Made by a program: the position numbers and the translations under genes. The notes under the pieces were generated by a model. It had not been told where the DNA came from. It did not search any database and saw nothing but the letters and a program-made list of their open reading frames with translations. A stretch of 64,000 bases of DNA from Vairimorpha necatrix (Eukaryota), in the NCBI GenBank assembly GCA_036630325.1, contig CP142730.1, positions 868,001 to 932,000 on the forward strand. Direction: 5' to 3'. Position 1 is the stretch's first letter; the number at the start of each line of letters is the position of its first letter. Positions 13,484 to 61,100 of this stretch are shown piece after piece.

Positions 13484-15790
13484 TTAATTAAAAATTTTAT
13501 CATCTTGATTTACGTAAATTTTCACCAGATCGTCATGAAAATTATCCTTTACTTCCGCAAAAAATTCTAAGATTTCCTCTTCGCTCAATACTTTTATTAT
13601 TTGGTTAATATACTTTTCGTATTTAAATTTTATATTTAATTCAGTCGTAAAAAAACTTTCAAATGCAATTTTTAAAACCTGCAATAATTCGCGCCTACAA
13701 CATATTCTTACATTTTTTTCAATATTAGTCAATAGTTTTATGCCTATTTTTTCTACTATCTCATTGTAAAGTTCATTTATTATGTTTTCATCACGATTAT
13801 TTATCATTATCACTAGATCTATTATCATGCTATCATGTTCGTATAAATTTTTTATGGCTATCTTTATACGTTCAAGTAGTTTATTTAAAAATTCAAATTT
13901 TACTTCTTGATCATATAAATGGTCTACTTTTATATTTAATGCATCAGTCATTATTTCATTTAGCGCTACACTTAACTTAAGTTTAAGAATTTTTTCAAAA
14001 TTATATTTTAATTCTTCTTTAGATATATTTTTCTCGGAGTTGTTTTCTAGCGAACATTTTATTTGGTAAAAATATTTCCTGTATTTTTTTTCGGCGTCCT
14101 CTTGTGAGTTTGATGCTAGTTTTTTTCTTATTGCCTCGTTATTAATATTTACTTCATTTATGTCAAATCCAAGAGTATTGATAACAGTATCTTTATGCGT
14201 AATTGATTGATAAGAATTTATTTCACACTTAGTTTTTTCAAGTCCTGTAAACAAAATCGATATTTCTAAGATACGAATCAAAATCTGTTTCCTGAGGATT
14301 TTAATATCTTTAAAATGAAGCTTCTCGAAATTTCGATAAATTTTTACTATATCGATTATATTTTTATTGTGGGGTAATTGAACTTCATTTATAGAGACTT
14401 TTTTTTCTATGTTTTCTTTGAGTTTAACTAATATTCCTATTTGTTTTAAAGTATTGAATATTGAATCATTCAAATCATCATTTTCGTTGATGTACCTTTC
14501 AGCCTCTAAAAACAAACAAATTTTTATGAAATATGTAAATAATATATCTACGCGCAGTATCAAATTTCTCAGAATTATTTCAATAATCTGTATTTTTCTT
14601 TCCCCGTTAAGTTTGTCCACGCCCAACATTTTGTTAAACTCATTTCTATCTATTAATTTTTGAATTAGCATAAGATGTGCACAAATAATGCATAAAGGAT
14701 TCTTTGAATTACTTATAATTCTGTCTAACAACAATTCTATTTTGTTTTTATTTTCGATTAATCTAAAAAACAATTCAACACTATCGTATTTAAAATCTAT
14801 AAGCCGAATCTTAATAAAAAGTTCTTTAAATTCCTCCAAGGTTTTTTTTTCAATGATGTTTTCATTGTCAACCTTGGTAGAATTATTATCTAAATTGTAA
14901 ACAAATTTTCCCAAGTTATGTGTAATCTGAATACTATTATTATTGATTGAGATTACAAAATTCAAATTATATAGTTCAATATTATCAATGTCGAAAGATA
15001 TGATATGTTTTTTATAATTTAAACTTAATCCCTCTAGGATAATAAACCTGTATAAATCATGGAATTTTTTACTAATTACCTTGTTAGTTTCATTAGTATC
15101 CGATGACTTTAATTCAACTCTGTTAAAAAATGTCTCTTCTTTGAGTTCTTTCAAATTTAATTCAAAAAAGTAATAAACATCATCTAAATAAATGCTGATA
15201 TTTAAATAACACTCATCGTTTCTTTCAACTATTGTAAGTGGTATTCTAAAATCTTTAGGATCTCCGTTATAAAACCTAAAATCAATTTTTATTCTACCTA
15301 CTATTCTATCCCACAGACAATAGTGATCATCAATAATATCATAAAAAATCTTAGAACACATGCTCAATTCTGTTCTTTTGGCATTTTCTTCTTTTAAATA
15401 ATTAATAATTTTTTTGTATATTGGATCTACTACATAAAAATTTGAGTTATATACTAAAATTATTGAGTCCGCTAGAATTTTTTCATATTCAAGCAATAAT
15501 ACTTCTTCAAATTCTTTAACAATAGTTTCAACAGACTTGCCTCTACAATTAATATTTATGTCTTCAAGACTCTTACTCTCATTCCATGGGAAAAATTCTA
15601 TCTCTAATTTTGCATTTAATTCGTGTATACTCAAAAACTTAAATTCTACTTTCAAATATCGCTTATTATTTACAATAACACAATAGTCTCGTTTGGCTAT
15701 TTTATTAGTTAAAATAGTATTAAGTCTATCATAGACACCTTTCCAAGAATGTATAAATACAAAAAAAATAATTAGTTTACTACTATTCAT
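13484..15790 (-). CDS. Lineage-specific ~770-aa protein with putative signal peptide (paralog A)
   Basis: 768-aa ORF, CCCT-ATG start, hydrophobic N-terminus. Clear full-length paralog at 29036-31351. No recognisable domain. Confidence 0.85.
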   Translation of the reverse strand: MNSSKLIIFFVFIHSWKGVYDRLNTILTNKIAKRDYCVIVNNKRYLKVEFKFLSIHELNAKLEIEFFPWNESKSLEDININCRGKSVETIVKEFEEVLLLEYEKILADSIILVYNSNFYVVDPIYKKIINYLKEENAKRTELSMCSKIFYDIIDDHYCLWDRIVGRIKIDFRFYNGDPKDFRIPLTIVERNDECYLNISIYLDDVYYFFELNLKELKEETFFNRVELKSSDTNETNKVISKKFHDLYRFIILEGLSLNYKKHIISFDIDNIELYNLNFVISINNNSIQITHNLGKFVYNLDNNSTKVDNENIIEKKTLEEFKELFIKIRLIDFKYDSVELFFRLIENKNKIELLLDRIISNSKNPLCIICAHLMLIQKLIDRNEFNKMLGVDKLNGERKIQIIEIILRNLILRVDILFTYFIKICLFLEAERYINENDDLNDSIFNTLKQIGILVKLKENIEKKVSINEVQLPHNKNIIDIVKIYRNFEKLHFKDIKILRKQILIRILEISILFTGLEKTKCEINSYQSITHKDTVINTLGFDINEVNINNEAIRKKLASNSQEDAEKKYRKYFYQIKCSLENNSEKNISKEELKYNFEKILKLKLSVALNEIMTDALNIKVDHLYDQEVKFEFLNKLLERIKIAIKNLYEHDSMIIDLVIMINNRDENIINELYNEIVEKIGIKLLTNIEKNVRICCRRELLQVLKIAFESFFTTELNIKFKYEKYINQIIKVLSEEEILEFFAEVKDNFHDDLVKIYVNQDDKIFN

Positions 15791-16078
15791 AGGGAGTAAA
15801 AAATATTTTTATTAATAAACTATTTCATATATTCAAAAAAAATAAATATTTTACTTACAAAGTAGCATAAATCTAGGATTAGTCTCTAGATTGTATTGTG
15901 ATAATAGTGAATACATCTCAATCTAGATGTCATAAAAATTCAACACCTGTCAAATATTTCCCAGCGCCTGTCAAACATAAAAAAAACAGAAAGAACATGT
16001 ATTTAATGTGTTTATGAAGACAAATCCCTTAAAATATAGTAAAATAATTGTACATAAGCTAAATCTACCTATCAATCA

Positions 16079-16597
16079 TCATATATATAAAAGAATTTTA
16101 TTTAATTTTTTACCCCTCTTTTTTGTGGTTTTGAAATTTTTAAACTATATATATATTAGGCTTTCTATGTTATTTAAATATCAAATATAGATTTATGGCG
16201 ATAATTTGACTATTCTAAGTGTGTATGTTATTAGTTAATACTTTTTAATTTTGATTATTATTTTTGTAAAACTCAGTTCCAAAATATCGTCAGAATCGTT
16301 TTTTAGAATTTATTTAACCCTTCTAGAAAAAATTCACAAAAACATTAACCAAAAAATAAGTAAAATATAAGTGTCAAAAATTGAGCTTAGAAGTTTCCAA
16401 AATTATCTCATTGTAATTATTAAATGTTTTTAGCTCAACTTTACTCCTTATATGTTACTAAAAAGTATTTTGTAAATTCATGTTTTTTCCTTATCAAATT
16501 TATTTTTCCCAAAATGGAAACTCAGAAAATAAAGTAGAAATAAATGCCATGAACAATAAATCAATCCCGTTTTCCAAAACGGGAAAGCATACGCTAG
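16079..16597 (+). mobile_element. Non-autonomous Helitron-like element, copy 1 (519 bp)
   Basis: A|TC 5' end. 3' hairpin CCCGTTTT-CC-AAAACGGG (16566-16583) lies 10 bp before CTAG|T. No TSD. Homologous copy at 20000-20518. Confidence 0.8.
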
Positions 16598-16779
16598 TTA
16601 TAAAATAAAAAATTTATTTAATTTTTTTTCTCTCATTTATATGATTTTGAAGTATCGAAGTAATTATTTTGCTATTGTTATATGTGAATTATATCAAATT
16701 TAAAGTTAATGCTTTGAATTAAATATCCATTGCGAGTATCTATATGTTAATGATTTTTATTAATTTAATTCATATTTTA

Positions 16780-16817
16780 TGTTAACCATTTATTTATTAA
16801 GGGTTCTAAACCCTACA
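16780..16817 (-). repeat. 3' micro-LTR of Gypsy 1
   Basis: TGTAGGGTTTAGAACCCTTAATAAATAAATGGTTAACA (minus strand), identical to 19817-19854. Confidence 0.93.
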
Positions 16818-19800
16818 TCCCCCCTCCAGACGGGTAGTCTCTCCATCTTCTAAACAACTCTTCCTTATCTCTTTCAAATCATAATGCCTCTTTTTAACAA
16901 TTTTACCATCCAGTAGTCTCACAATATATGAATCATTTTCACTTATAGCTACGATCCTTCCGCGACCCGTGAATCTTCCCTTGTCTGTTTTCGCACGTGT
17001 ACCTAAATTTTCTCTCCTAGCGATTCTTACCTCTTGGCCTACTGTAAATGTCTCTCTGTGTCTTCTCTTGAACCGACCAGCATATTTTCCATTTTCATCA
17101 TTTTCAATTATAACTTCAGCAGTTTGATCTCTCCACGCTTCCATCGGCGTACATTTTATTGCTGTATGTAGTGTATTATTATATCCTTTGATTGCTCTTT
17201 CTATCTTTTCAGAAATATTCCCATCATTTTGCTTTATCAATGTCTCTCTTATAGTTCTGATGCATCTCTCGATTCTACCATTACTCCTATGAGCTTCTAA
17301 GCCCACTTTCCTATGTTTAATATCATTAATACTACACCATTCTTTAAATCTATTACTTACAAACTCTTTTCCGTTGTCTGTCACATATTCCTCTGGAAAT
17401 CCATCTTCCCTTATCCACTTTTGTAATACCTCTATAACTTCACTACTCTCTTTACATCTCAAATTCGAACCCCACAACCTTCTAGTAAAGTAATCAATAC
17501 CCAGTAACACATACCTATTCTCTCCACCTATGTCCATTAAATCCAACGCCACTTTCTCCAATTTCTTTCTAGTTACTACGAAATCACATCCTCCTGTGTT
17601 TTTCCTATTGTTAATCCCACATATTTCACAATTCTTAATTACCTTATTAATATGATCTTTCATACCAGGCCAATACCATCTTTGTTTAATGTTATAATAA
17701 GTGCCTTTGACACCTCTATGGTTTAACTCCTCATGTACTCTTGTTATTTCATGTTCTCTACTATCTAGGCTCAATATCTCTTTCACCTCACCTGTGGAAA
17801 ATTCCCAATACTGTTTACCGTCCTTTTCTTTAATATGTTTCTGCTTTTTTCCCAAAATTTGTTTTTCGATCACTTCTTTTCTCTTGTTGTCCTTTTCTTT
17901 TTGTTCATCCGAAACTTCTACCTGATCATACTGCCTGCTTAACGCATCTGCATCTGTCATCAACTCCCCTTTCACATACTCTATTGTAAAGTCAAACTCT
18001 TGTATCTGTTCTACCCATCTGTTTATTCTGTTATTATTGAAGTATGGCTTATTTCTGATCTCTGCTAATGCTTTATGATCCGTCATCAAATGAAATTTCC
18101 TTCCTCTCAAATCACTTTCAAACTTCTTTATTCCAAAAAACACCGCCAACATCTCCTTCTCACTTATCGTATATCTTCGCTCGGTAGGAGTCAACATTTT
18201 CGATGCCCATTGTATCGGAATCCACTCACCCTCTTTATTTTCTTGTACTAGAATTGCTCCGATCCCCGTATCACACGCATCAGTTCTTACTCTAAATAGC
18301 TTTTTTCCGTCCGGAATCTTCAACTTTTTCATATCTCTCAAGCCTTGCTTCATATCCTCAAAAGCTCTTTCCATATCCTCCGTCCAATTCCACTTAACAT
18401 CTTTCTTTAAAGCCTCAGTAAGCCTTACTGTTCTATACGCATAGTTGGGAATAAAGTCTCTAAACCAACCAGTTAGTCCTAAAAATCTTCTTAACTCTCT
18501 AACATTCTCAGGTTTTCTATATTCCAATGTCTCCTGCTTTTTAATCTCATTCGGTCCCATGACCTCCCCATTAATTGTTACTCCCAGCAACATCACCTCA
18601 TCTTTTTTGTATTGTATCTTTGTTTGGTTTATTCTCAACCCACACTCTTTAAACTTTTTAATTACCCTCTCTAGTAACTCGTCATGCACTCTTACGTCTT
18701 TACCATGAATAACTATATCATCCATATATACTTCCACGCCTTTACCTCTGAATTCATCTAAAACTCTGTTCATTACTCTCTGCATTATATGAGGCGAATT
18801 CTTAAACCCCATAACCATACTATTCCATTCGTATACTCGACCATTCACTTCAAATGCTGTTTTGTGCTTATGGTGCTCCTCAATCTCAATATGATAAAAC
18901 CCTTCTTTTAAGTCGATAACCGTAAATACTTTTGACCCCTGTGTGGCTCTCATAATATCCTTAATTAACGGTAGTGAGTACGGGTCCTTGTCAACCAAAT
19001 CGTTTAACGCCATCAAATTGCTTACCAATCTTACGTCCCCATTTGGGTTTTCAAGTGCTCTTATTGGACTCCTCCACTCACTTTTGGAACGTCTTATAAC
19101 CCCTCTATTTTCCAACTTATTCAAGTACTCCTCAAATTTCACCCTAAGGTAGTATGGCACATTCTGCCCTCTTTTCACAACCTTTTCACCTTGCTTAGTA
19201 TTTATTGGACACTTCTCTCCTGTGAGATATTTTATCTTTTCTTCTGATTCTTTAAAAACTTCCGGATACTTTTCAATTAAATTTTCTAACTTATTTACTG
19301 TTTTACATCTTTTCCCTTCATTGTTGATAATTGGTTCTTTCTGTAAAACTTGTTCCTTTTTAATTTTATATTTTTCCCTACCAGCTACACTTTCATGACA
19401 TTCTCTAGCGTAATGCCCTTCTTTCTTACATATAAAACATTTTGTAGTTTCTCTGATTTCTCTTCTTTTCCTATACATCCTAAGATTTTCTTTTCTTTCT
19501 TCCCTAAACTCTTTCAACACTTTATCGATAATCTCTTTAATCATTTCTTGTCTTTCTTCTGACTCTCTCTCAAATTCTGCTCCTTTTTGTAAGCCTTTAT
19601 AAATTTCCTCCCAACTGCTCCTTCCGTCACAAAAATTTTCAAAAATATAATCCTGCAAGTTCGCAGATGCCAAATCCATAACATCTTTCCACTCAACTTT
19701 CTCAACTTTCAATATTAACTTTAGTCTCTTATCTATCCTAATTGCCTCTTTCTCTAATGTTCTAGCCTCTTGACTACGGGACTCTCTTGTTTCCCTGTTC

Positions 19801-19826
19801 ATCCTTGTGTTCGCCATGTTAACCAT
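16806..19826 (-). CDS. Gypsy polyprotein: short Gag + CCHC, RT, RNase H, integrase
   Basis: CFICKKEGHYAREC knuckle. RT motifs IDLKEGFYHI, KTAF, YMDDI. RNase H TDAC..GIGA, EKEMLA, TDH, ADALSR. Integrase HHCC, D..TDNGKEF, SNGRIER. Intact 1006 aa. Confidence 0.97.
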   Translation of the reverse strand: MVNMANTRMNRETRESRSQEARTLEKEAIRIDKRLKLILKVEKVEWKDVMDLASANLQDYIFENFCDGRSSWEEIYKGLQKGAEFERESEERQEMIKEIIDKVLKEFREERKENLRMYRKRREIRETTKCFICKKEGHYARECHESVAGREKYKIKKEQVLQKEPIINNEGKRCKTVNKLENLIEKYPEVFKESEEKIKYLTGEKCPINTKQGEKVVKRGQNVPYYLRVKFEEYLNKLENRGVIRRSKSEWRSPIRALENPNGDVRLVSNLMALNDLVDKDPYSLPLIKDIMRATQGSKVFTVIDLKEGFYHIEIEEHHKHKTAFEVNGRVYEWNSMVMGFKNSPHIMQRVMNRVLDEFRGKGVEVYMDDIVIHGKDVRVHDELLERVIKKFKECGLRINQTKIQYKKDEVMLLGVTINGEVMGPNEIKKQETLEYRKPENVRELRRFLGLTGWFRDFIPNYAYRTVRLTEALKKDVKWNWTEDMERAFEDMKQGLRDMKKLKIPDGKKLFRVRTDACDTGIGAILVQENKEGEWIPIQWASKMLTPTERRYTISEKEMLAVFFGIKKFESDLRGRKFHLMTDHKALAEIRNKPYFNNNRINRWVEQIQEFDFTIEYVKGELMTDADALSRQYDQVEVSDEQKEKDNKRKEVIEKQILGKKQKHIKEKDGKQYWEFSTGEVKEILSLDSREHEITRVHEELNHRGVKGTYYNIKQRWYWPGMKDHINKVIKNCEICGINNRKNTGGCDFVVTRKKLEKVALDLMDIGGENRYVLLGIDYFTRRLWGSNLRCKESSEVIEVLQKWIREDGFPEEYVTDNGKEFVSNRFKEWCSINDIKHRKVGLEAHRSNGRIERCIRTIRETLIKQNDGNISEKIERAIKGYNNTLHTAIKCTPMEAWRDQTAEVIIENDENGKYAGRFKRRHRETFTVGQEVRIARRENLGTRAKTDKGRFTGRGRIVAISENDSYIVRLLDGKIVKKRHYDLKEIRKSCLEDGETTRLEGGCRV

Positions 19827-19854
19827 TTATTTATTAAGGGTTCTAAACCCTACA
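19817..19854 (-). repeat. 5' micro-LTR of Gypsy 1
   Basis: Identical to 16780-16817. Contains CCC, AATAAA and the first ATG of the ORF. Confidence 0.93.
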
Positions 19855-19999
19855 TTTTATAAACCAAGTTTTAAAGTATCGTTAGAATCGTTTTTTAGAA
19901 TTCACTGTACACTTTCCACAAAAATTTTAAAAGCATTTAATTATAAATCTCGAATAAAATTGTCAAAATCGAACTTAAAGCATAAGAAAGTTATCCTAA

Positions 20000-20518
20000 T
20001 CATATATATAAAAGAATTTTATTTAATTTTTTACCCCTCTTTTTTGTGAATTTGAAATTTCTAAACGATACATTTTGAGCCTTTTACGTTAATATAATAT
20101 CATATATAGATTTAATGTTTCAATTTGATAATTATAGATGCGTATACTATATGTTAATACTTTTCGTTTTTAATAAAGTTTTTTGTAAAACTCAGTTCCA
20201 AAATATCGTCAGAATCGTTTTTTAGAATTAATTTAACCCTTCCACGAAAAATTGCAAATTAATTTATTAATAAAGATTTTGAATATAAATGTCAAAACTT
20301 GAGCTTAGAAAATCCCAAAATTATCTCATTATAATTATTAAATATTTTAGCTCAACTTTACTCCTTATATGTTACTAAAAAGTATTTTTTAAAATCATGT
20401 TTCCCCTTTCTAAATTCATTCATCCCCAAATGGAAACTTACCAAAATTTACCGAGGCGGGACATATAATAAAACAAAACATTTAAATCCCGTTTTCAAAA
20501 CGGGAAAGCATACGCTAG
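20000..20518 (+). mobile_element. Non-autonomous Helitron-like element, copy 2 (519 bp)
   Basis: A|TCATATATATAAAAG start. Hairpin CCCGTTTT-C-AAAACGGG (20488-20504), then AAAGCATACGCTAG|T. Colinear with 16079-16597. Confidence 0.8.
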
Positions 20519-20787
20519 TAATTTTATAATACATTTTTATTAATTACCAATATAGTTTTGAAAGAATAAGTTTTACTACTTAAAAATGTATGGGGAAAAG
20601 TCGCCAACGTATATAAGGTAATGCCAAAAATAGCCCTTAAAGGGTAAATTAAAATGTTTATATTTTTTTATGGTATCATCCTTAAAGTTATCAATGACTT
20701 TATTTCTTTAAGCACATACGAATAGTCATTGTCTTTTGTTTTTTTATTTTTAGCATAACTTTTGTTTTTCTTTCTTTTAATATTATG

Positions 20788-20836
20788 TGTGTTTATTTTC
20801 CATAATGAGGGGTAAAAATAATAAGGATATATAACA
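20788..20836 (-). repeat. 3' micro-LTR of Gypsy 2
   Basis: TGTTATATATCCTTATTATTTTTACCCCTCATTATGGAAAATAAACACA (minus strand), identical to 23923-23971. Confidence 0.93.
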
Positions 20837-20863
20837 TCCCCCCTCCAAGACGGTAGTCTCATA

Positions 20864-23800
20864 CTAGAACTCATTAATCTCAAGCAGACCTTTTAAATCA
20901 TAATGCCGCTTTTTCACGATCCTACCATTTTCCAAACTAACTAAGTACGAGTCACCTCCGCAAACTTCCTTGATAACACCATATCCTAAAAACCTTCCTT
21001 TCTCATACTTACTACAACCCGATAAGTTCTCTTTCTTCGCTACCCTAACTCTCTGACCTTTATAGAATTTCTCTCTTTTGCGAGCCACAAACCTCCTACT
21101 ATAAAATCCTTCAGGTCCATTCTCGATCATAACATGGCCCGTTTTGTCTCTTGAGGCCTCAAACGGTGTACATCTCAACCCTTCATGATAGCTGTTATTA
21201 TAACGCCATATACATCTATTAACCTTGGCTTCAAAATCCACAGCATCATCTTTCAATATTCCTTCTCTTATGGTTCCTATTACCCTTTCCACTCTTCCAT
21301 TACTTCTATGACTTTCTACGCTTACTTTCCTATGTAATACATTTTCCTCTGAACACCAATTCCTCATATATTCATTACTAAATTCTTTACCGTTGTCAGT
21401 AATTATTTCTACCGGTTTCATTCCTGATCCACACAACTGTTTTAAAAATCCTACAACCGAGCTTCCGCGTTTGTCCTCTATTACTTTTCCCCAAACGATC
21501 CTAGTATAATAATCAATCACGACCAACACATATTTCCCTAAATCTCTAAACTCAATCAAATCCAAAGCAACCTTTTCAAAATAAAATCTTGAACTAACAA
21601 AATCACAACCACCACTCTTTTTCCTATTATATATTTGGCAAACTTCACACTTCTTTAAAACATCCTCGATATCCTTCTTCATACCCGGCCAATAAAATTC
21701 AAACTTCATTGCATAGTACACTGATCCTAAACTTCTATGTCCCAAATTTTCATGAGCATTGACAATTAAACCTTCACGCAATTCTTTCTTTGGAATCTCC
21801 GCTTCTCTACCAGAGTCAAATACCCAAATTTCCTTCCCATCAACAACTTTAACATGCTTGTCCCATTTACCCTGTGCCTGTTTAATACTTCTCTCCTTAT
21901 TCATTAGCGTTTTCTCATTTTCATGTACCCTACTCAGTGCATCTGCTACAACCATGGTACTAGGCTCTCTATATTCAATGCTAAAGTCGAACTCTTGAAT
22001 CTTTTCAATCCACCTGTTAATTCTATTATTGTTAAATGCTGGTTTATTTCTAATCTCGATCAATGCCTTATGATCAGTTTCTACCCTAAATCTTCTTCCG
22101 CGTAGTTCATATTCAAACTTTTTAATTCCCCAAAAGACTGCATACATCTCCTTCTCACTGATTCCATATCTCGTTTCCGTAGGCGTAAACTTTTTTGATG
22201 CCCACTGTACTGGTACCCAATTACCTTGATCATCTTCCTGCATTAAAACAGCACCCATTCCAACATTACTCGCATCCGTGCGTAACAAAAATTCCTTATT
22301 ATAATTAACAATTGCTAAACCTTTTAAATCCCTAATCACTTCCCTTAAACTAATATATTCTTTTTCCATTTCTTCTGTCCATTTCCAATTACTTCCTCGT
22401 CCTTTAAGAGAATCCGTCAACGCCAATGTACGTTTTGCATAATTATCAATATGATTTCTAAACCATCCAGCCAGCCCAAGAAACTTCCTAACATCTGATA
22501 CACACTCCGGTTTGGGAAATTCTAACGCTTCATTTTGCTTTATTTCAGATGGCAGTATCTCCTTGCCATTAACTGTTACTCCTAACAACATCACCTCTCG
22601 TTTACATAATTGAACCTTAGCCAAATTAATTTTCATACTATTCTCCTCTAATATATCCACAGCCTCTTTCAACAATTTGTCGTGACCCTCTCTTGTCTTA
22701 CTATGAATCACAATATCGTCCATATAAATTTCGATTCCCTTACCAATAAATTTTTCAAAAATCCCATTCATTATTCTTTGTAATATCTGCGGTGAGTTTT
22801 TAAACCCCATGACCATCGAATTCCACTCGTATACCTTTTTATTAAACTCAAAAGCCGTCTTAAACCTATCCTTCTCTTCAATCTCAACACTATAAAACCC
22901 CTCCTTTAGATCTATCACGGTAAAAAATTCAGATCCCTGTGTACTTCTAATAACATCTCTTATCCTAGTTAACTCATAAGGATCCTTCTCTACAATGTCA
23001 TTAAGAGCAATTAAATTACTTACTAATCTTATATCACCATTCGGTTTCTCAATCGCTCTAATGGGATTTCTCCAATCAGATGTCGACCTTCTAATTATCT
23101 TTCTTCTTTCCAAACTATTAATATAATCTTCCGTCTTCTTCAACAAAGCCTGAGCTATAGCCTGCCCTTTTTTAACAACTTTCTTGCCTTCTTGAGTCTT
23201 GATAATACATTTTTCAACCTTACAAAAACTAATATCTTCATCCTCTCTTCCTCCTACCCGTGAAATAATCTCCTCTAAATACGCGATGCCTCTTACATCC
23301 CTTCTCAACAGAACTCTCTTATTATTGTCCCTTTTGCTATAATCTTGTATATCCCCAAAATTTTTCTTCTTACGTTTCCCACCATCAACATTATAATAAT
23401 CACATTTGTCCGAATTGGAATCGTCATCACATTTACCCTCTAAGTCTAATTGCACTTTACATTTACCAACATAATTAAAACTACTTTTATTTCTTCTGTC
23501 TTCAGAATCTCGCCTCATTCCCCTACAAAATCTAACACTATGGCCTAACTTCCCACAATTGTAGCAACGCATATTCTTTTTATTTTCCTCACGAGACAAC
23601 TTATTCTTCTCCTCAAATTTAGCCCATAACGCTAGGGACAACTCTTCAAATTCTTTTTTTCTCACTTGTTCCTTTTCCTCCTGAATAGCTAGCAACTCTA
23701 ATTTTTCCTCAATTTCCTTCCAACTACCCTCTTGCGAGATCCTCTCAACAATAAAATTTCTCAATAAAATAGAACCTCTCCTAAAAATTTCTAATTTAAA

Positions 23801-23938
23801 TCCACACTCATCAATTTTCTCTAAAAACAACTCATAAACAATCCTTTTAACCTCTTTTAATAATATTCTAGCCTCTTGGCCACGGTCCTCCTTTGTAGAC
23901 CCATTTTCTGGTATCGCCCCCATGTGTTTATTTTCCAT
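20864..23938 (-). CDS. Gypsy polyprotein: short Gag + CCHC, RT, RNase H, integrase
   Basis: CYNCGKLGHSVRFC, IDLKEGFY, YMDDI, TDASNVGMGA, ADALSR, H..LGH..C..C, TDNGKEF, SNGRVER. Intact 1024 aa. Confidence 0.97.
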   Translation of the reverse strand: MENKHMGAIPENGSTKEDRGQEARILLKEVKRIVYELFLEKIDECGFKLEIFRRGSILLRNFIVERISQEGSWKEIEEKLELLAIQEEKEQVRKKEFEELSLALWAKFEEKNKLSREENKKNMRCYNCGKLGHSVRFCRGMRRDSEDRRNKSSFNYVGKCKVQLDLEGKCDDDSNSDKCDYYNVDGGKRKKKNFGDIQDYSKRDNNKRVLLRRDVRGIAYLEEIISRVGGREDEDISFCKVEKCIIKTQEGKKVVKKGQAIAQALLKKTEDYINSLERRKIIRRSTSDWRNPIRAIEKPNGDIRLVSNLIALNDIVEKDPYELTRIRDVIRSTQGSEFFTVIDLKEGFYSVEIEEKDRFKTAFEFNKKVYEWNSMVMGFKNSPQILQRIMNGIFEKFIGKGIEIYMDDIVIHSKTREGHDKLLKEAVDILEENSMKINLAKVQLCKREVMLLGVTVNGKEILPSEIKQNEALEFPKPECVSDVRKFLGLAGWFRNHIDNYAKRTLALTDSLKGRGSNWKWTEEMEKEYISLREVIRDLKGLAIVNYNKEFLLRTDASNVGMGAVLMQEDDQGNWVPVQWASKKFTPTETRYGISEKEMYAVFWGIKKFEYELRGRRFRVETDHKALIEIRNKPAFNNNRINRWIEKIQEFDFSIEYREPSTMVVADALSRVHENEKTLMNKERSIKQAQGKWDKHVKVVDGKEIWVFDSGREAEIPKKELREGLIVNAHENLGHRSLGSVYYAMKFEFYWPGMKKDIEDVLKKCEVCQIYNRKKSGGCDFVSSRFYFEKVALDLIEFRDLGKYVLVVIDYYTRIVWGKVIEDKRGSSVVGFLKQLCGSGMKPVEIITDNGKEFSNEYMRNWCSEENVLHRKVSVESHRSNGRVERVIGTIREGILKDDAVDFEAKVNRCIWRYNNSYHEGLRCTPFEASRDKTGHVMIENGPEGFYSRRFVARKREKFYKGQRVRVAKKENLSGCSKYEKGRFLGYGVIKEVCGGDSYLVSLENGRIVKKRHYDLKGLLEINEF

Positions 23939-23971
23939 AATGAGGGGTAAAAATAATAAGGATATATAACA
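23923..23971 (-). repeat. 5' micro-LTR of Gypsy 2
   Basis: Identical to 20788-20836. Order on minus strand: TATATA, T-run, CCCC, ATG, AATAAA, CA. Confidence 0.93.
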
Positions 23972-24099
23972 TTATGTTTGTATATTTAAAATAATCGAGA
24001 TTTCCAAACACATATCAAGCTCAGTTAAGCTTGATATTGTAAACAAACCTTTTCTAATGAAGAGCTAAACTCTTTTGATCCATTATTTGTAAATTGTAT

Positions 24100-25165
24100 G
24101 TCAAGTACTATTTTTTTTCCATATCATTGGAATGTAATCGTCTTCTCGACTAATTCGTCATATAATAATAAGACTTCTTGAATTTTATTTAAATTATAAA
24201 CACTACATATTTACCTAACTAAATATTTAATTGTAATGTATTTTTTTTTGTCACTAATAAATATTAAACAAAGCGACGTTCAATGTAAAATCTATAATTG
24301 TATCATCCTTGATAATTTAAAAAATGCTAATGAATTAATTTTTTTTGAACCCGTGTGTTCTATTTAGAATACAAAAAAATTCTATCTTGGTGTCTGGATG
24401 AACAATTGTAATGCTTTGTGTAACCCAACTTACCATATATAATCATATTATTCATTTTTAAGATATTTGCCAAATCTAATAGTATTTAAAAGACTTCAAC
24501 ACATATTTCATGTTTTTTATTTGGTAGAAGAAAAAAAGCAAAAGGAATAAAAGTATATTCATATATAAAAATACTACTTAAGATTGCAAAAGAGCCGAGG
24601 CGAGACAATGTCCAATCCGTTTCAAATACATTTTTTACTTTTGTGGGTTAAACTTTTATCATCCCAGCATGCATTATTCTTTCTTCGGTGCTAAAATAAT
24701 TATCATGGTGTATAAAATTAAGGTCGGATCTTGTAATTAATTACACTTCGAACATCGAATTATTGGAATAATGATAATTTTAAAGTACGTCTTGTGTATT
24801 TTCAATTCCTTTTTTTTTGATACGTATGCTTAAATGTAATTGTCACTCTGAATCATTAAGCATTGATGTTTTGCACATACAATTATATTTTTAGTTTTTC
24901 TGCTTGTGAACCTTCTCTTTTTATATCTTTATTTACAAAATGGCTTTATATTGGAAATTGCTTAGATCTTTTTGATTATGTTGTTAAACGCATATTCCAA
25001 AAATAATGATATTAAAGCTTATATTATCAATGCAATTCTTAATAACAAGACCACTTTATAAATGAAATCTCGATGTATTTTTTTACAATATTAAAACTCC
25101 TTCTATAGCTTCATTTGTTTTCTTTTTATGACATATATTAACAGTTTTTTCTTTATGATCCATAA
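24100..25165 (-). pseudogene. Degenerate MULE (Mutator-like) transposase relic
   Basis: Broken-frame peptides YTFIPFAFFLLPNKKHE (~24557-24507; compare MULE fPlvyaLlpnK..e.Y) and GLHKA/ITIVHPDTKIEF (~24425-24375; compare al.nA...vfP.a.i.gC.fH). GGGTT-ATG at ~25163. Many stops. Boundaries approximate. Confidence 0.55.
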
Positions 25166-29035: not shown

Positions 29036-31351
29036 TCAAATAAGTTTATTAAAATTCTCTTTTTCTTGGTCCTTGTAAATTTTCACCAAAACATCGTGCA
29101 AATTAATTTCCACTCCATTTAAAATTTCAAAAATTTCCTTATCACTTAAGACTTTAACTATTTGTTTAATATAATTTCCATAATTGCGGTCTATGTCTAA
29201 ATCAGACTCAAAATTATCTTCGTATTTTACTATTAAAACCTGCAATAATTCCCGTTTACAACATATTCTCGCATTTTTTTCGATATTAGTCCATAAACTT
29301 ATACGCACTTTTTCTACTATCTCATTAAAAAGTTCATTCATATATTCTTCATCCCAATTCCTTATCATTTTCGCCAATTCTTTCATTATGATATCATGTC
29401 TGTATACATTTTTTATAGCTTGATTTGCACGTTCGCTCAGTTCATTTAAAAATGCATTTTTTACTTCCTCATCATATAAATGGTCTATTTTTTCATTTAA
29501 TGCATTAGTCATTATTTCATTTAACGCTTCATTTAACTTAAATTTGTGAATTTTATCAAAAATATTTCTTAATTCTTCTTTTAATATACTTTTCTCGCTT
29601 TTGTTTTCTAGCAAATATTTTATCTGGTAAAAATATTTCCTGTATTCTTTTTCGGCGTCCTCTTGTAAATTTAAAGTTAATTTTTTTCTTATTGCCTCAT
29701 TATTTTTATCAACTTCATTTCTAAATAATCTAAACAAATCGAGAACTTTATTCTTTTGCGTAAAGCATTTATCAAATTCTAATTTATAGACACATCTTTC
29801 CAATCCTGTAAACAACGACAATAATTTTAGAATATAAGACCATATCTGCTTTCTAAACATTTTAATATCTTTAAAATGGAGCTCTATAAATTCTTGATAT
29901 ATTTTTCTTAAATCAATTATTTCTTTATTTTGCGATGAATGGAATGAATTTGCATGGACATTAATTTCGACCTGATTTTTGGTGTTAATAAAAATTCCTA
30001 TTTTCTTTAAAGCACTAAATATTGGATCATTAATAATAAAAATTTCGTTTAAGTATCTTTCGGCCTCTAAGAACAAACAATATTTTATGATATACGTATA
30101 TGATGAATATTCACGATGTACAAATTTGGTTAGAAATCGTTTTGTGATCTGTGTTTTTCTTTCCGCGCAAAGTTTATCTACGCTTAACAATATATTTAAT
30201 TCATTTTCATCTATTAATTCTTGATCTAACATAAGATAAGAAAATATGATGCAACAAGGGTTGTCTGGACTATTTAAAATGTTATTTACCAGATATTCTA
30301 CTTTGTTTTTATTTTTTATTAATCTAAAAAATAATTCAACTTTAGTAAAATCCAGCTCCAATAAACGAATTTTTTTAAAAAACTCCTTTAATATCATGAC
30401 AGTTTTTTTCTTTTTAAAATTTTTATTTCCAGTTGAACATGATATGCTATTCAAATGGCAAACATAATTTTCCTTATCGTTTGTAAATCGCAACGCGTTA
30501 CTTATCATAAATATCTCAAAGTTCTGAGAAAATAATATGATTCTATCAAGTTCGAAGGTTGTAGAGTGCAAATGACTATCTAAACTTATTCCCTCTAGGA
30601 TAATAAACCTGTATAAATCATAAAAACATCTACTGATAATCTTGTTTGTTTCATTAGTATCTGATGACTTAAATTCAACTATGTTAAAAAATGTCTCATC
30701 ATTAAGTTCTTTCAAATTAAATTCAAATAAATAATAAACATGATCCAAATAAATACTGAAATTCAAATAACACTCATCGTTTTTTTCAAATATTTCAAGT
30801 GGTATTATATAATAATTAGGATCTCTGCCTAAAAACTTTAATTTGTGTTTTATACTACATACTATTCTATTCCACAGACAATAATGATCATCAATAATAT
30901 CATAAAAAATTTTAGTACACACACTCAATTCTGTTCTTTTGGCATTTTCTTCTTTTAAATAATTAATAATTTTTTTGTATATTGGATCTACTACATAAAA
31001 ATTTGAGTTATATACTAAAATTATTGAGTCAGCTAGTATTTTTTCATATTCAAGCAATAATACTTCTTCAAATTCTTTTACAATACATCTAACAGATTTG
31101 CCTCTACAATTAATATTTATGTCTTTAACAATTTTACTCTCATCCCATGGAAAGGTTTCTATCATCAATTTTGCATTCAATTCCTGTAAATCTGTATATT
31201 TCAATTCTACTTTTAAATATCGCCTTTTAATGTCAATAACATAATAATCTCGTTTGGAAATTTTGTTGGTTAAAATAGTGTTAAGTCTATCATAGACACC
31301 TTTCCAAGAATGTATAAATATAAAAAAGCTCATTAATTTACAACTATTCAT
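29036..31351 (-). CDS. Lineage-specific ~770-aa protein with putative signal peptide (paralog B)
   Basis: 771-aa ORF, CCCA-ATG start. Aligns end to end with 13484-15790. Confidence 0.85.
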   Translation of the reverse strand: MNSCKLMSFFIFIHSWKGVYDRLNTILTNKISKRDYYVIDIKRRYLKVELKYTDLQELNAKLMIETFPWDESKIVKDININCRGKSVRCIVKEFEEVLLLEYEKILADSIILVYNSNFYVVDPIYKKIINYLKEENAKRTELSVCTKIFYDIIDDHYCLWNRIVCSIKHKLKFLGRDPNYYIIPLEIFEKNDECYLNFSIYLDHVYYLFEFNLKELNDETFFNIVEFKSSDTNETNKIISRCFYDLYRFIILEGISLDSHLHSTTFELDRIILFSQNFEIFMISNALRFTNDKENYVCHLNSISCSTGNKNFKKKKTVMILKEFFKKIRLLELDFTKVELFFRLIKNKNKVEYLVNNILNSPDNPCCIIFSYLMLDQELIDENELNILLSVDKLCAERKTQITKRFLTKFVHREYSSYTYIIKYCLFLEAERYLNEIFIINDPIFSALKKIGIFINTKNQVEINVHANSFHSSQNKEIIDLRKIYQEFIELHFKDIKMFRKQIWSYILKLLSLFTGLERCVYKLEFDKCFTQKNKVLDLFRLFRNEVDKNNEAIRKKLTLNLQEDAEKEYRKYFYQIKYLLENKSEKSILKEELRNIFDKIHKFKLNEALNEIMTNALNEKIDHLYDEEVKNAFLNELSERANQAIKNVYRHDIIMKELAKMIRNWDEEYMNELFNEIVEKVRISLWTNIEKNARICCKRELLQVLIVKYEDNFESDLDIDRNYGNYIKQIVKVLSDKEIFEILNGVEINLHDVLVKIYKDQEKENFNKLI

Positions 31352-48243: not shown

Positions 48244-49275
48244 ATGATATTTTTTCCTCTACTCTTCATTACTGCCGAAATATTCAAAGTAAAATACCTA
48301 AATATGGACGATAACCCTCTTAGTAAATTTAAATTTGATAGACGGAAGTTTAAATTAAATGTAGATAATAAAAAATTTATCTTTACTAATGGATCAAAAA
48401 ACTACATAACAAATCCATGTGTTTTCACGCTAGAACAAGAAGATTCTTTTGGATATTTGCGTATTTGCGATGAATATTTAGGTCTAATCTGTACACTAAA
48501 AGAATGTTGGAAACTTGAAAGTACCAAAGATACAGATCCTTATAGTGTAAAAATCGACAAATATTCATTAAATAAAGTGACAGCTAATTTCGAAAACTTT
48601 TATAAGTCAGAAATAACTAATATTAGTAAAAAACTGAGTGATGACGGGCTTATTATAAAAAATGAACTAAGGCTTGTCGATAAAAAAATTTTACAACTAA
48701 AAATAGCACTAATAAATGATTACGATAGATACAAAAGTCTAAATAAAAAGGCAAATGACGAAACATTAGAAATATTTGATATGACGAGAAAAATTTTAAA
48801 CAGTTTAAAATTCAAAGATTTTATGGTCGACATCTTCTTGTCGATAAATCTTAACAGGACGACATCAAATTTAATATCCAGCAAGTTAAAAGATCCACTT
48901 ACAACTCTTGAGTCTAAAATATCAAAAATAAAAAGTATAAATAATAAATTGTACGATAGTGATTTGATTATCTTAATAACAAATGATAAATTTAATGATA
49001 GAGAAGGAATGAGTTATTTAAATGGATTAGAAGACAGAGAGACAAAATACATAATTGTAAACCTTGATCAGGAAGATACAATATTTTATAAAGCCAAAGT
49101 TTTAGTACATGAGATTTTACACACACTTGGAAGTTCACATGATGAAGAAGGAGATGGATTTTTGATGGATAAAAATTTTTTAGATAAAAATGATAAAAAA
49201 GTCTTGTTGAGTGAGAAGTCTGTAAAAGATATTGAGAAATTTGTGATTAAAAACAAAAAACGATTATTTAAATAA
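48244..49275 (+). CDS. Secreted zinc metalloprotease, metzincin (reprolysin/ADAM M12B-like)
   Basis: HEILHTLGSSHD zinc motif, followed by a Met-turn (GFLM). Hydrophobic N-terminus from ATG 48244. Confidence 0.88.
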   Translation: MIFFPLLFITAEIFKVKYLNMDDNPLSKFKFDRRKFKLNVDNKKFIFTNGSKNYITNPCVFTLEQEDSFGYLRICDEYLGLICTLKECWKLESTKDTDPYSVKIDKYSLNKVTANFENFYKSEITNISKKLSDDGLIIKNELRLVDKKILQLKIALINDYDRYKSLNKKANDETLEIFDMTRKILNSLKFKDFMVDIFLSINLNRTTSNLISSKLKDPLTTLESKISKIKSINNKLYDSDLIILITNDKFNDREGMSYLNGLEDRETKYIIVNLDQEDTIFYKAKVLVHEILHTLGSSHDEEGDGFLMDKNFLDKNDKKVLLSEKSVKDIEKFVIKNKKRLFK

Positions 49276-58150: not shown

Positions 58151-61100
58151 TGGGGGCATAAAAATTTTTTATCAATATATAAAAAAATAAGATAAACTTA
58201 ATTTTTTTGCAAAATAATCTGGAATTAAACACAAGACTGTATTATTTGAAATATTTAAGGAAATATATAAGCTATAAGTTTAATAAACATTGCAATTTTG
58301 ACATATGTACATTTTGGCAAAAAACAATGTTAACTAAAAAAGAATCTTTTAGTAATATCCGTCGATTTAGTAAAATAAACATGTTAATGTGCGGGATAAA
58401 TTTTGTATAAGTGCAATAGTTTTACATTTTTAAAATGAGTATAATCAAAGGTCATTTCAATGTAATTATAAGGTTAGGTAAATGAGATAAATCTTCACAG
58501 TTTTCGTTAAGAAATTCATATATAAGCAGTAACTTAAAATAAAGTATTATTGAACCAATATAAAAATATCAATCCAAAATTTGGAAGTAATATATTCTTA
58601 AAGTTTACATATCTGTATATATTGTGATTTATTAATAAATTTAGAATGCTTAATATAATTTTTTGATAATAACATCGTTAACTAGAAAATAGGAGCCTGA
58701 GTGTTAAGTTTTATAATATAAGATTACATAAACTAATATTATACACTAGAAATCAGTTTTGACTTCAAAATATTATGAATAATATACCCTTATGACTCAA
58801 TTATATTGGTTGGCAACAATAAAAAAAATTTTTTTTGAGTAAGATTGAGTAAAAATTTTTACTATGAAATTAAAATAGAACCTGCAAAGAATATCGAAAA
58901 GGAGATTTGGGTTGAAATTAATCCGTAGTTTTCTAAGCATAGACAATCTACTATGATTAGTCTATTTTAACCTAGGCTTGCAAGATGCCCTAAAAATTAT
59001 TTTCATATGTAATTTACATATTTAATGTCGACATCATAAAAAAAAATATCTAACCCCGATAAAAACTTATTTTTAGCATATCATTGATTACCGCAATTAA
59101 ATCTAGATAATAATTTTTTAAATTTTATAATTTATAAAAATCGACAAAATTGTTTTTAGTAAGAGTTTCGACTTAATATATAAAAAACATTTTTTCAATT
59201 AATAATAACATCTTTGGCAGTTTAAAGTAAATAAAACAAATTTCCTTAAATTTAAAGAGTTATTGTAAATTTTACATGCTTGTAAAAGTATAGTCAAGAT
59301 TATAAAATTGTGACAATTATGAATATTTTTAAAAATAAAATATGTGGTAACTATCAAACGTCAAATATAAAGTTTCAATTATTTTTTATTTAAATCTGTG
59401 AAAATTTTTTATTTTACAATCATTTTAATATTTTAAGTTTTAAACTTAGTTCTTGTAAATAGACGATATAGGTATGTAAAATCGTTCGTATGACAATTTT
59501 TAAGTGTTTTTAAAAAATGATTTAATGTTGTTAGATTTTTTGATATCTAGTTCTGTTTGATGGAAAAATCAGTCGGAATATAAATTATTGGTAAAGTCTC
59601 TAAAAAAATCTTTAGAAGATTTACTTTGAATTTTTGGCCAACATTATTGAAATCTGAGGCTATTTATTGACTATTATTAAAAATTAACAAAGTTTGACGA
59701 ATATTTGATTTGTAGAAACTTCAATGATAAACCTTGCCGTTAAAAACATATTCATAAAATATATGTAAAGCATGGAACATAATTAAATTCAATTCCGTTT
59801 AGAAAATATCATATAAAGCACACACTCTATTTTTATTGAATATCTATTAAATCGAATATTATTTGTAAACTCAACTGTTATTTTAAATAATTTAAAATAA
59901 AGCGTTACAGGAGCATAGTATCGCAGAACAAACCGATAAACTAAACCTCAGGAATTTGAACTATCTATATAATCTTTCAAAAAAAAAAATTCTGACTTAA
60001 AAAAAGGGTTTTTATTTGTTATATATGATATATGTAACAATTATAGCACCGATTCTACAATAGTATTGCAACTTTACCTTAAGTTAACCGTAATTTTAGT
60101 ATCTACATCCCTCTGTACATCTTAAAACAGGGTAAATGTTAGTTTTGGAGCATAGTAGCTACAAATTGGATTAAGAGCAAGCTTTATGGTGAATCTTTTC
60201 CAATTCTTTTATGCCATCGGCTGTAGATAATTGCTAAAGAAATTACAAATATTATTTACATGTAATTATAATATACTCGGTTCGTGAATTTAATATTTTT
60301 CTATCGCTCTCATTTATAAACGTTTTATTTCGATGAACCAAAATAAACTAGAATTTTTCCATAAAAATCCTTATAAAGGTATGATTAACATGCAAGTTAT
60401 ATTAATTCTTGCGAGTTTCATTCATAATTAAAAAAAAACAAATAAACATTTCTTATTATAGCTAAATCCGTTTGTCTCATATTGATCTTTTTATCAAAAA
60501 TGACTGAAAATTTATATTTTTTATTGCGAAAGGCACCCCTCTCAAAAAACTGGAAAAAAAATCTATGTTTTGTGGTACGTTTGTTGCTAATTTTTGTGTT
60601 TCCAATTTGTATTAAAATATTTTAAAGTTGATTTTATAGATCAGAATAACGTTTTTTAAGTAAGTTAAAAATTGTAAAGTTATGTAAAAACGTCTATAAT
60701 CTAATACTTGTCTTCAAAATCCTTATGTACATTTTTAATACCCATTTACTGTAAAATTAGCAGCTTTTTCGTTTTCTCGTTTTTTTGTGCAAATCTAAAT
60801 TATTCCAAACCGTTTTTTACGACATATTGATACTAAGTTTAACAAAATAAAAATTTAAAAACGATATGGACCTAAAAATTTAAATTGAAGCATAAAATCT
60901 GTATTTGACATTACTTTAATATACTAAGGATAAAATAAATAGATTGAAGATTTTTAAAGCACGAAAAGAGGGGCAAAAAATTAAATTAAATTCTTTTAAT
61001 AGTATAGTAGACAGATTTAAAAACTATGCATCAAATAATACAAATTATTGTCAGTTTAGACATAAATAAATATTGTTATAAATCATGATAAAATTAAACT

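Follow-up and report, generated by a model that had tools for sequence, protein, structure and literature searches.

Two Ty3/gypsy-type retrotransposons with terminal repeats of 38 and 49 bp in Vairimorpha necatrix, and short terminal repeats in their relatives

The stretch of Vairimorpha necatrix DNA analysed here (64,000 nt; contig CP142730.1 of assembly GCA_036630325.1, positions 868,001 to 932,000 of the forward strand; hereafter the window, with positions counted from its first letter) carries two complete long terminal repeat (LTR) retrotransposons of the Ty3/gypsy type, which we call elements 1 and 2. Each is bounded by perfect direct repeats and a perfect target-site duplication (TSD), with a polypurine tract (PPT) and a site resembling a primer-binding site (PBS) directly inside the repeats. 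Their termini are as follows.

16780..19854, minus strand: element 1, 3075 bp, a complete LTR retrotransposon with perfect 38-bp repeats, a 5-bp TSD and a single open reading frame (ORF)
19817..19854, minus strand: 5' LTR of element 1, 38 bp, TGT...ACA
19803..19816, minus strand: PBS-like site of element 1 (TGG...), abutting the 5' LTR and within coding sequence
16818..16827, minus strand: PPT of element 1, GGAGGGGGGA, abutting the 3' LTR
16780..16817, minus strand: 3' LTR of element 1, 38 bp, containing the ORF stop codon TAG
16775..16779 and, second copy, 19855..19859: TSD of element 1, TTTTA, perfect, 5 bp
20788..23971, minus strand: element 2, 3184 bp, a complete LTR retrotransposon with perfect 49-bp repeats and a 5-bp TSD
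23923..23971, minus strand: 5' LTR of element 2, 49 bp, TGT...ACA
23908..23922, minus strand: PBS-like site of element 2 (TGG...), abutting the 5' LTR and within coding sequence
20837..20846, minus strand: PPT of element 2, GGAGGGGGGA, abutting the 3' LTR
20788..20836, minus strand: 3' LTR of element 2, 49 bp
20783..20787 and, second copy, 23972..23976: TSD of element 2, TTATG, perfect, 5 bp

An initial annotation of this DNA had described two intact elements with these repeats, and their termini are recovered here to the letter: the LTR pairs are 100% identical (38 nt in element 1, 49 nt in element 2), all four LTR copies start with TGT and end with ACA, and the duplications TTTTA and TTATG are perfect. 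Apart from repeats far below the usual length, these are the TG...CA direct repeats and the 4–6-bp TSD of an LTR retrotransposon. Within the 64-kb window, at up to three mismatches, the 38-nt and 49-nt LTRs match twice each where none is expected (0 in 100 shuffles), and the solo LTRs that the annotation had proposed to look for are not found there at that threshold. In both elements the PPT GGAGGGGGGA directly precedes the TGT with which the 3' LTR opens, as had been claimed; it lies in a 27-nt block with 85% identity between the two. At the opposite end TGG adjoins the 5' LTR in elements 1 and 2 and in three relatives described below (L038, L039 and L004). The window holds neither a tRNA gene nor an Rfam match, the complements of the PBS-like sites match only themselves within it (plus one chance match, with one mismatch, at 47811), and inspection by eye alone revealed no LTR stretch complementary to the TGG site of the kind that Tf1-like self-priming would use. 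The word ‘intact’ holds for the open reading frames and the complete termini; no protease is encoded, and the strand is corrected to minus for both elements.

As annotated, a single ORF fills some 97–98% of each element:

16806..19826, minus strand: ORF P0001 of element 1, 1006 aa, 3021 of 3075 nt (98% of the element)
20864..23938, minus strand: ORF P0002 of element 2, 1024 aa, 3075 of 3184 nt (97% of the element), with the same domain set as P0001

Pfam gives the two ORFs one layout, namely a CCHC knuckle, reverse transcriptase (RT), RNase H and an integrase with its HHCC and DDE parts (in P0001, RVT_1 at 261-418, RT_RNaseH at 508-611, Integrase_H2C2 at 690-741 and rve at 766-839, the order in P0002 being identical), and the succession RT – RNase H – integrase is that of Ty3/gypsy Pol. 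This bears out the Ty3/gypsy identity and, because the proteins are only 47–48% identical, also the assignment of the elements to two families. The YxDD, integrase HHCC and D,D35E residues are invariant in 21/21 aligned relatives, and the CCHC knuckle, whose score of 20.8 bits in the N-terminal piece is close to the Pfam threshold, is found in 13 of these 21 clade members. The Gag-like N-terminus is short (~125 aa) and poorly conserved across the aligned relatives, and this region matches no Pfam capsid family in either ORF; most aligned relatives nevertheless share an N-terminus of M, a few residues and then H/Y/N/D-M-A/G. In the subfamily of element 1 the ORF runs through the PPT and stops inside the 3' LTR (16806-16830; L037:2690-2740), and because of this read-through the conserved C-terminal tail GETTRLE.G of that subfamily is probably kept by the nucleic-acid signal and not by protein function.

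That both elements integrated as complete units, as the initial annotation held, is shown by sites with and without them. Logan contigs of four public runs (X2, X4, X15 and X17) were placed on window positions 16500-24200. One X2 contig (1751 nt, depth 78) joins 20519-20781 directly to 23971-24200 with zero letters between; the joint 20781->23971 omits 3189 nt, that is, the 3184-nt element 2 plus one TSD copy, with seven letters fitting either side, and the contig is the precise empty site of element 2 with a single TTATG. Contigs of X4 and X15 that carry element 2 copies pass into unlike sequence precisely at 20788, 20837/20838 and 23922, and because these break points coincide with the LTR edges of element 2 they mark further insertions of copies whose ends are identical in position. 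A contig of X17 (3165 nt) spans exactly 20788-23952 at 97.3% identity to element 2, its length being that expected (3184 - 49 + 30) for a word-31 graph collapsing two LTR copies of at least 31 nt. The empty site of element 1 is paralogous, and is read from a repeated host unit of 521 bp that the element interrupts:

16599..16769 (+) and 19861..20019: left and right parts of a truncated 521-bp unit split by element 1, host context outside the element

Intact 521-bp units at 16078-16598 and 19999-20519 read across the insertion point with a single TTTT[A/G].

Public runs yielded further observations on the copy number and spread of the two families. In X2, with depth summed over all contigs, the ends of both elements are 10–40 times deeper than the interiors (20788-21183 and 23223-23971 in element 2; 16757-17527 and 19327-19840 in element 1), and one X2 contig of depth 1193 joins 21183 to 23223 inside element 2. 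This pattern suggests, though only as a lead, abundant internally deleted non-coding derivatives that retain the micro-LTRs. Copies of element 2 at 97–99% identity, free of the window flanks, occur in runs X3-X20 (20 rows, 15 studies) that bear the labels of many organisms, including a bat gut metagenome; element 1 was seen in X2 only among X2, X4, X15 and X17. The spread of element 2 copies could reflect either a widespread host or transfer of the family between genomes.

Relatives of the two proteins were sought more widely, which returned 36 loci from metagenome contigs and 39 from genome-bin contigs, ten of them close relatives (L001, L002, L003, L006, L009, L037, L038, L039, L062 and L063). 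The nearest named proteins are those of Nosema granulosis, Vairimorpha necatrix and Enteropsectra breve; the N. granulosis proteins P0005 and P0031 are 73% and 70% identical to element 1, with P0019 at 53%, and P0019 is 80% identical to element 2 over aligned columns. A near-identical protein, P0015, comes from a JGI contig of 3797 nt and did not appear among the metagenome loci. Short LTRs recur among these relatives. In L038 perfect 67-bp TG..CA repeats flank an ORF of 1114 aa, and in L039 58-bp TG..CA repeats flank one of 1095 aa; in each case the 5' repeat is followed by TGG, and the 3' repeat is preceded by a tract rich in purines, weaker in L039. L037, whose 5' end is cut off and whose protein shares 67% identity with element 1, ends in the same PPT block and a 38-nt TGT...ACA segment that is identical to the element 1 LTR at 29/38 positions, with CCC, AATAAA and ATG in the same places. 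A far more distant element on a metagenome contig (L004:959-5637; 27% identity to the window proteins) measures 4.68 kb (4680 bp) and has 53-bp LTRs, the perfect TSD GATGT, TGG after the 5' LTR and the order gag-protease-RT-RNase H-integrase. At more distant loci the repeats measure 91 and 142 bp in two cases and no less than 98 and 116 bp in two others.

In a phylogeny of 52 rows built with FastTree, a kind of check that the initial annotation had asked for, a single clade of 33 rows with an SH-like support of 95 takes in all five elements with paired short LTRs as well as the proteins of N. granulosis, V. necatrix and E. breve, while the four rows with LTRs of at least 91 bp fall outside it. 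The window elements nest among gypsy-type polyproteins, and their sister clade holds ‘K02A2.6-like’ animal sequences. The stable lineage of minimal LTRs that had been proposed is thus borne out by L038, L039, L004 and the single 3' LTR of L037 together with the clade support, and the comparison of these sequences supports short LTRs as a lineage trait of the clade. Fifteen relatives found in Logan only (976–1031 aa) lie on contigs of 3035–3192 nt with at most 100 non-coding nt in 14/15, and such unit-length contigs fit collapsed elements with short LTRs, an indirect hint in the same direction. Several of the relatives (L037, L038, L039, L062 and L063) are AT-rich contigs filed in bacterial bins (Clostridium sp., Erysipelotrichales, Turicibacter), and these look like mis-binned microsporidian DNA from gut metagenomes.

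The LTRs themselves are densely occupied. Within the 38 nt of the element 1 LTR are a stop codon (10-12), CCC (15-17), AATAAA (20-29, starting at 20 and at 24) and an in-frame ATG (29-31), as well as both integrase ends; the element 2 LTR has a T-run, CCCC at 25-28, ATG at 34 and AATAAA at 40, and in both elements a second ATG spans the junction of LTR and TGG (ACA/TGG). Across the six short LTRs, the TGT start and ACA end are present in 6/6, A[AT]TAAA in 5/6, and CCC 2–10 nt ahead of an in-frame, in-LTR ATG in 4/6 (elements 1 and 2, L037 and L038). The LTR ends of the elements fit the motifs TGTTRNR...YNYAACA that, with an AATAAA signal, are given among the conserved LTR modules of Metaviridae in the text consulted (PMC3601003). 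The CCC-ATG arrangement is also that of the host: window host genes have a T-rich run and CCC directly before the start codon, and the 15 nt preceding the ATG include CCC in 13/17 host ORFs of the window, as against 4.3% for ATG triplets overall (binomial p = 3e-15). For Nosema ceranae, a T-run and CCC are described no more than 15 bp from start codons (PMC2685015), and rapid amplification of cDNA ends in Encephalitozoon cuniculi, likewise as far as the text consulted goes, gave 5' untranslated regions below 7 nt and AAUAAA ~20 nt ahead of cleavage, with frequent overrun (PMC2803860).

We conclude, with a probability of roughly 0.8, that these are two genuine and recently mobile Ty3/gypsy-type elements of a microsporidian of the Nosema/Vairimorpha group, members of a clade in which LTRs have shrunk to 38–67 bp, and that they would replicate in the following way. 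The LTR would act as a maximally overlapped control module. Its first ~14–45 nt would form U3 (the unique 3' region), comprising the integrase end motif, an A/T-rich stretch and the CCC start-proximal motif; transcription would start a few nt upstream of the in-LTR ATG, and the repeated part of the RNA (R) would run from this start to the LTR end, giving a terminal redundancy of ~10–22 nt. The in-LTR AATAAA would put cleavage at or slightly past the outer LTR end and leave U5 (the unique 5' region) effectively nil, and because cleavage ~20 nt after AATAAA would fall at or beyond the LTR edge, the entire 3' LTR would be present in the RNA. Minus-strand synthesis would be primed at the TGG site and would yield a very short strong-stop product, as short as the terminal redundancy itself, to be transferred through that short redundancy; plus-strand priming would take place at the GGAGGGGGGA tract, and integrase would act on the TGT/ACA ends, creating the 5-bp duplication. 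The polyprotein would either function uncleaved or be cut by a protease supplied from elsewhere.

Several points weigh against this conclusion. Both ends could fit in only 3/10 close-relative loci (L003, L038 and L039), and LTR pairs were found in 2/3 of these, L003 being degraded and showing no detectable repeat pair. No matching TSD surrounds either L038 or L039, possibly because repeated DNA assembled from metagenomes can acquire chimeric flanks. The branch of L004 is long (1.86) and its placement unsure, and the tree was made by FastTree alone. The start motif is uneven, in that L039 has no in-LTR ATG, with CCC 19 nt before the junction ATG, and CCC was not found in the L004 LTR. The limits of U3, R and U5 and the start and poly(A) sites are predictions from motifs; the PBS-like sites, for which the initial annotation was right as to the TGG abutting the 5' LTR, are candidates named solely from position and TGG. 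Finally, the absence of an encoded protease would weaken the case for autonomy.

This last point underlies the alternative that fares best. No aspartyl protease stands upstream of RT in either element, as it would in Ty3/gypsy elements: there is no family match in the N-terminal 260 and 300 aa of P0001 and P0002, respectively, at E up to 10, the RT homology begins ~40 aa past the zinc knuckle, and 0/21 aligned clade relatives have a protease match at E up to 0.01. Protease matches are retained in L038, L039 and L004, and the protease was therefore lost within the short-LTR clade, later than the shortening of the LTRs. The elements might accordingly be real but non-autonomous, taking protease or whole particles from protease-bearing relatives of the L038/L039 type or from the host, a reading that the absent matches in both ORFs and throughout the aligned clade members, with their retention in those three relatives, would favour. 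However, long intact ORFs persist in the protease-less form across many assemblies and at least three named genera, which argues for long-term self-sufficiency, and the window holds no protease-bearing element; we regard non-autonomy as unlikely, while still a case to be reckoned with.

A second alternative concerns transcription, in that the micro-LTR might drive none and serve only as integrase ends and transfer homology, the elements being read through from flanking host DNA. Overrun and multi-gene transcripts are reported for microsporidia in the portion of the literature consulted (PMC2803860), and a U3 of ~14–45 nt would be very small as a promoter. Yet CCC precedes an in-frame ATG by 2–10 nt in 4/6 LTRs, just as it precedes the start in 13/17 host genes, and a start outside the 5' LTR would give no correct ends under the standard two-jump scheme, which makes read-through improbable next to a promoter within the LTR.

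That the short repeats are remnants, with these copies being deletion derivatives of families whose LTRs run to hundreds of bp, is very improbable. LTRs below ~80 bp are unusual, and the smallest found in the published texts compared is the 85 bp of the non-autonomous FRetro129 (PMC3281118). Against this, the LTR pairs are identical and have TGT...ACA ends with TSD, TGG and PPT directly adjoining; for copies of the element 2 family in X4, X15 and X17 the break points are these same LTR edges; LTRs of 38–67 bp occur in four further families; and the LTR of L037 is also 38 nt, despite only 67% protein identity to element 1. The idea that a collapsed or chimeric join made the repeats can be set aside, for although repeated DNA misassembles easily and the region is rich in the very high-copy 521-bp repeat, contigs of four other runs reproduce the termini and interior of element 2, one of them gives its exact empty site, and the independent assemblies of L037, L038, L039 and L004 have the same architecture.

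The sequence around the elements is that of an AT-rich microsporidian genome (window G+C = 27%), and the TruD gene of the window has its nearest match, at 41% identity, in Vairimorpha apis. Full copies of the 521-bp repeat lie at 16078-16598 and 19999-20519 (80% identical) and partial ones at 16599-16769, 19861-20019 and 60882-60998; element 1 sits within one copy, and 268 bp separate element 2 from another. In X2 the summed contig depth of this repeat is 24,000–90,000 versus ~78 for single-copy flank, and contigs contain head-to-tail joints (20519->19999 and 16598->19999, with C/CATC-type linkers), so that the unit is a very abundant, partly tandem repeat. Two minus-strand ORFs, at 13484-15790 (768 aa) and 29036-31351 (771 aa), have no Pfam match; both begin ATGAATAGT after near-identical T-run/CCC upstream sequence and may belong to one gene family. 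A plus-strand ORF at 48244-49275 (343 aa) has a weak match to M12B reprolysin-type zinc metalloproteases (E ~2e-6).

The first description of such elements in a microsporidian is reportedly that of the Nbr elements of Nosema bombycis by Xu and colleagues in 2006. Ty3/gypsy elements are known from microsporidia in the texts consulted (PMC2387174, PMC3614468, PMC4202319), among them the gypsy families of Anncaliia algerae (Parisot et al. 2014; PMC4202319), and Parisot and colleagues are credited, in the part of a later text that was covered, with Gag and Pol merged as a single polyprotein (PMC13174016). The Nbr and A. algerae elements belong to the same superfamily and come from the same host phylum as elements 1 and 2, and the difference from them may lie in description only, their LTR length, protease and start/stop overlap being unstated in these texts. 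Nothing on microsporidian LTR length, protease loss or the overlap of codons and signals within an LTR was found in the print sources compared, which did not extend to Xu et al., figures or supplements; the LTR length of a microsporidian element in particular is unstated in the portions covered of PMC4202319, PMC3486916, PMC13174016, PMC3614468, PMC2685015, PMC2387174, PMC3281118, PMC3601003 and PMC2803860, and the terms sought did not occur in PMC11592040. The 50 complete consensus elements of Parisot and colleagues may well record short LTRs. Gypsy-type elements as such are thus known, and the micro-LTR, protease-less form is possibly new, its novelty being uncertain.

Outside microsporidia, the smallest LTR retrotransposon reported in the text consulted is FRetro129, whose LTRs measure 85 bp (PMC3281118). 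SMART elements such as FRetro129 and the plant TRIM elements resemble elements 1 and 2 in their very short TGT...ACA repeats and 5-bp TSD; in contrast they are non-coding and non-autonomous, from 292 bp upward, whereas elements 1 and 2 encode RT, RNase H and integrase and have LTRs about half as long. Ty1 of yeast has the Gag start codon in its 5' LTR and its PBS inside coding sequence, and shares both with elements 1 and 2, but it is of the copia type, encodes a protease and has LTRs of ~330 bp, while elements 1 and 2 are gypsy-type, with 38- and 49-bp LTRs and no protease. The Mag element of Bombyx may have LTRs of ~77 bp, a figure that a literature search did not confirm. From the general Metaviridae plan, as far as it is laid out in the text covered (PMC3601003), the short LTRs share the end motifs and AATAAA, and they differ in packing these modules into 38–67 nt that overlap coding sequence.

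A broader claim would take in the whole phylum: a microsporidian Ty3/gypsy lineage with the shortest LTRs known (38–67 bp), in which integrase ends, core promoter, transcription start, start and stop codons and poly(A) signal overlap and strand transfer relies on a redundancy of only ~10–22 nt, with one protease-less subclade of 3.1 kb that is possibly the smallest of protein-coding LTR retrotransposons, the whole undescribed in print and missed by standard LTR finders. We offer this tentatively, as a proposal that inclines more to doubt than to assurance.

LTR finders have a default minimum LTR of ~100 bp and for that reason would skip such elements, and in public records the ORFs of such elements are named ‘endonuclease’ or ‘reverse transcriptase’, or lie in bacterial genome bins; because of both, the transposon content and activity of microsporidia are probably under-counted. 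For the elements themselves, the finding would mean that the repeat needed to copy an LTR retrotransposon can be far shorter than usually assumed, and it would lower the working limit of LTR content, as 38 nt would suffice for a promoter, a strand-transfer repeat and the two integrase ends. These families may thus offer a natural system for studying minimal terminal redundancy in reverse transcription, and for asking whether a Gag-Pol fusion works without a protease of its own.

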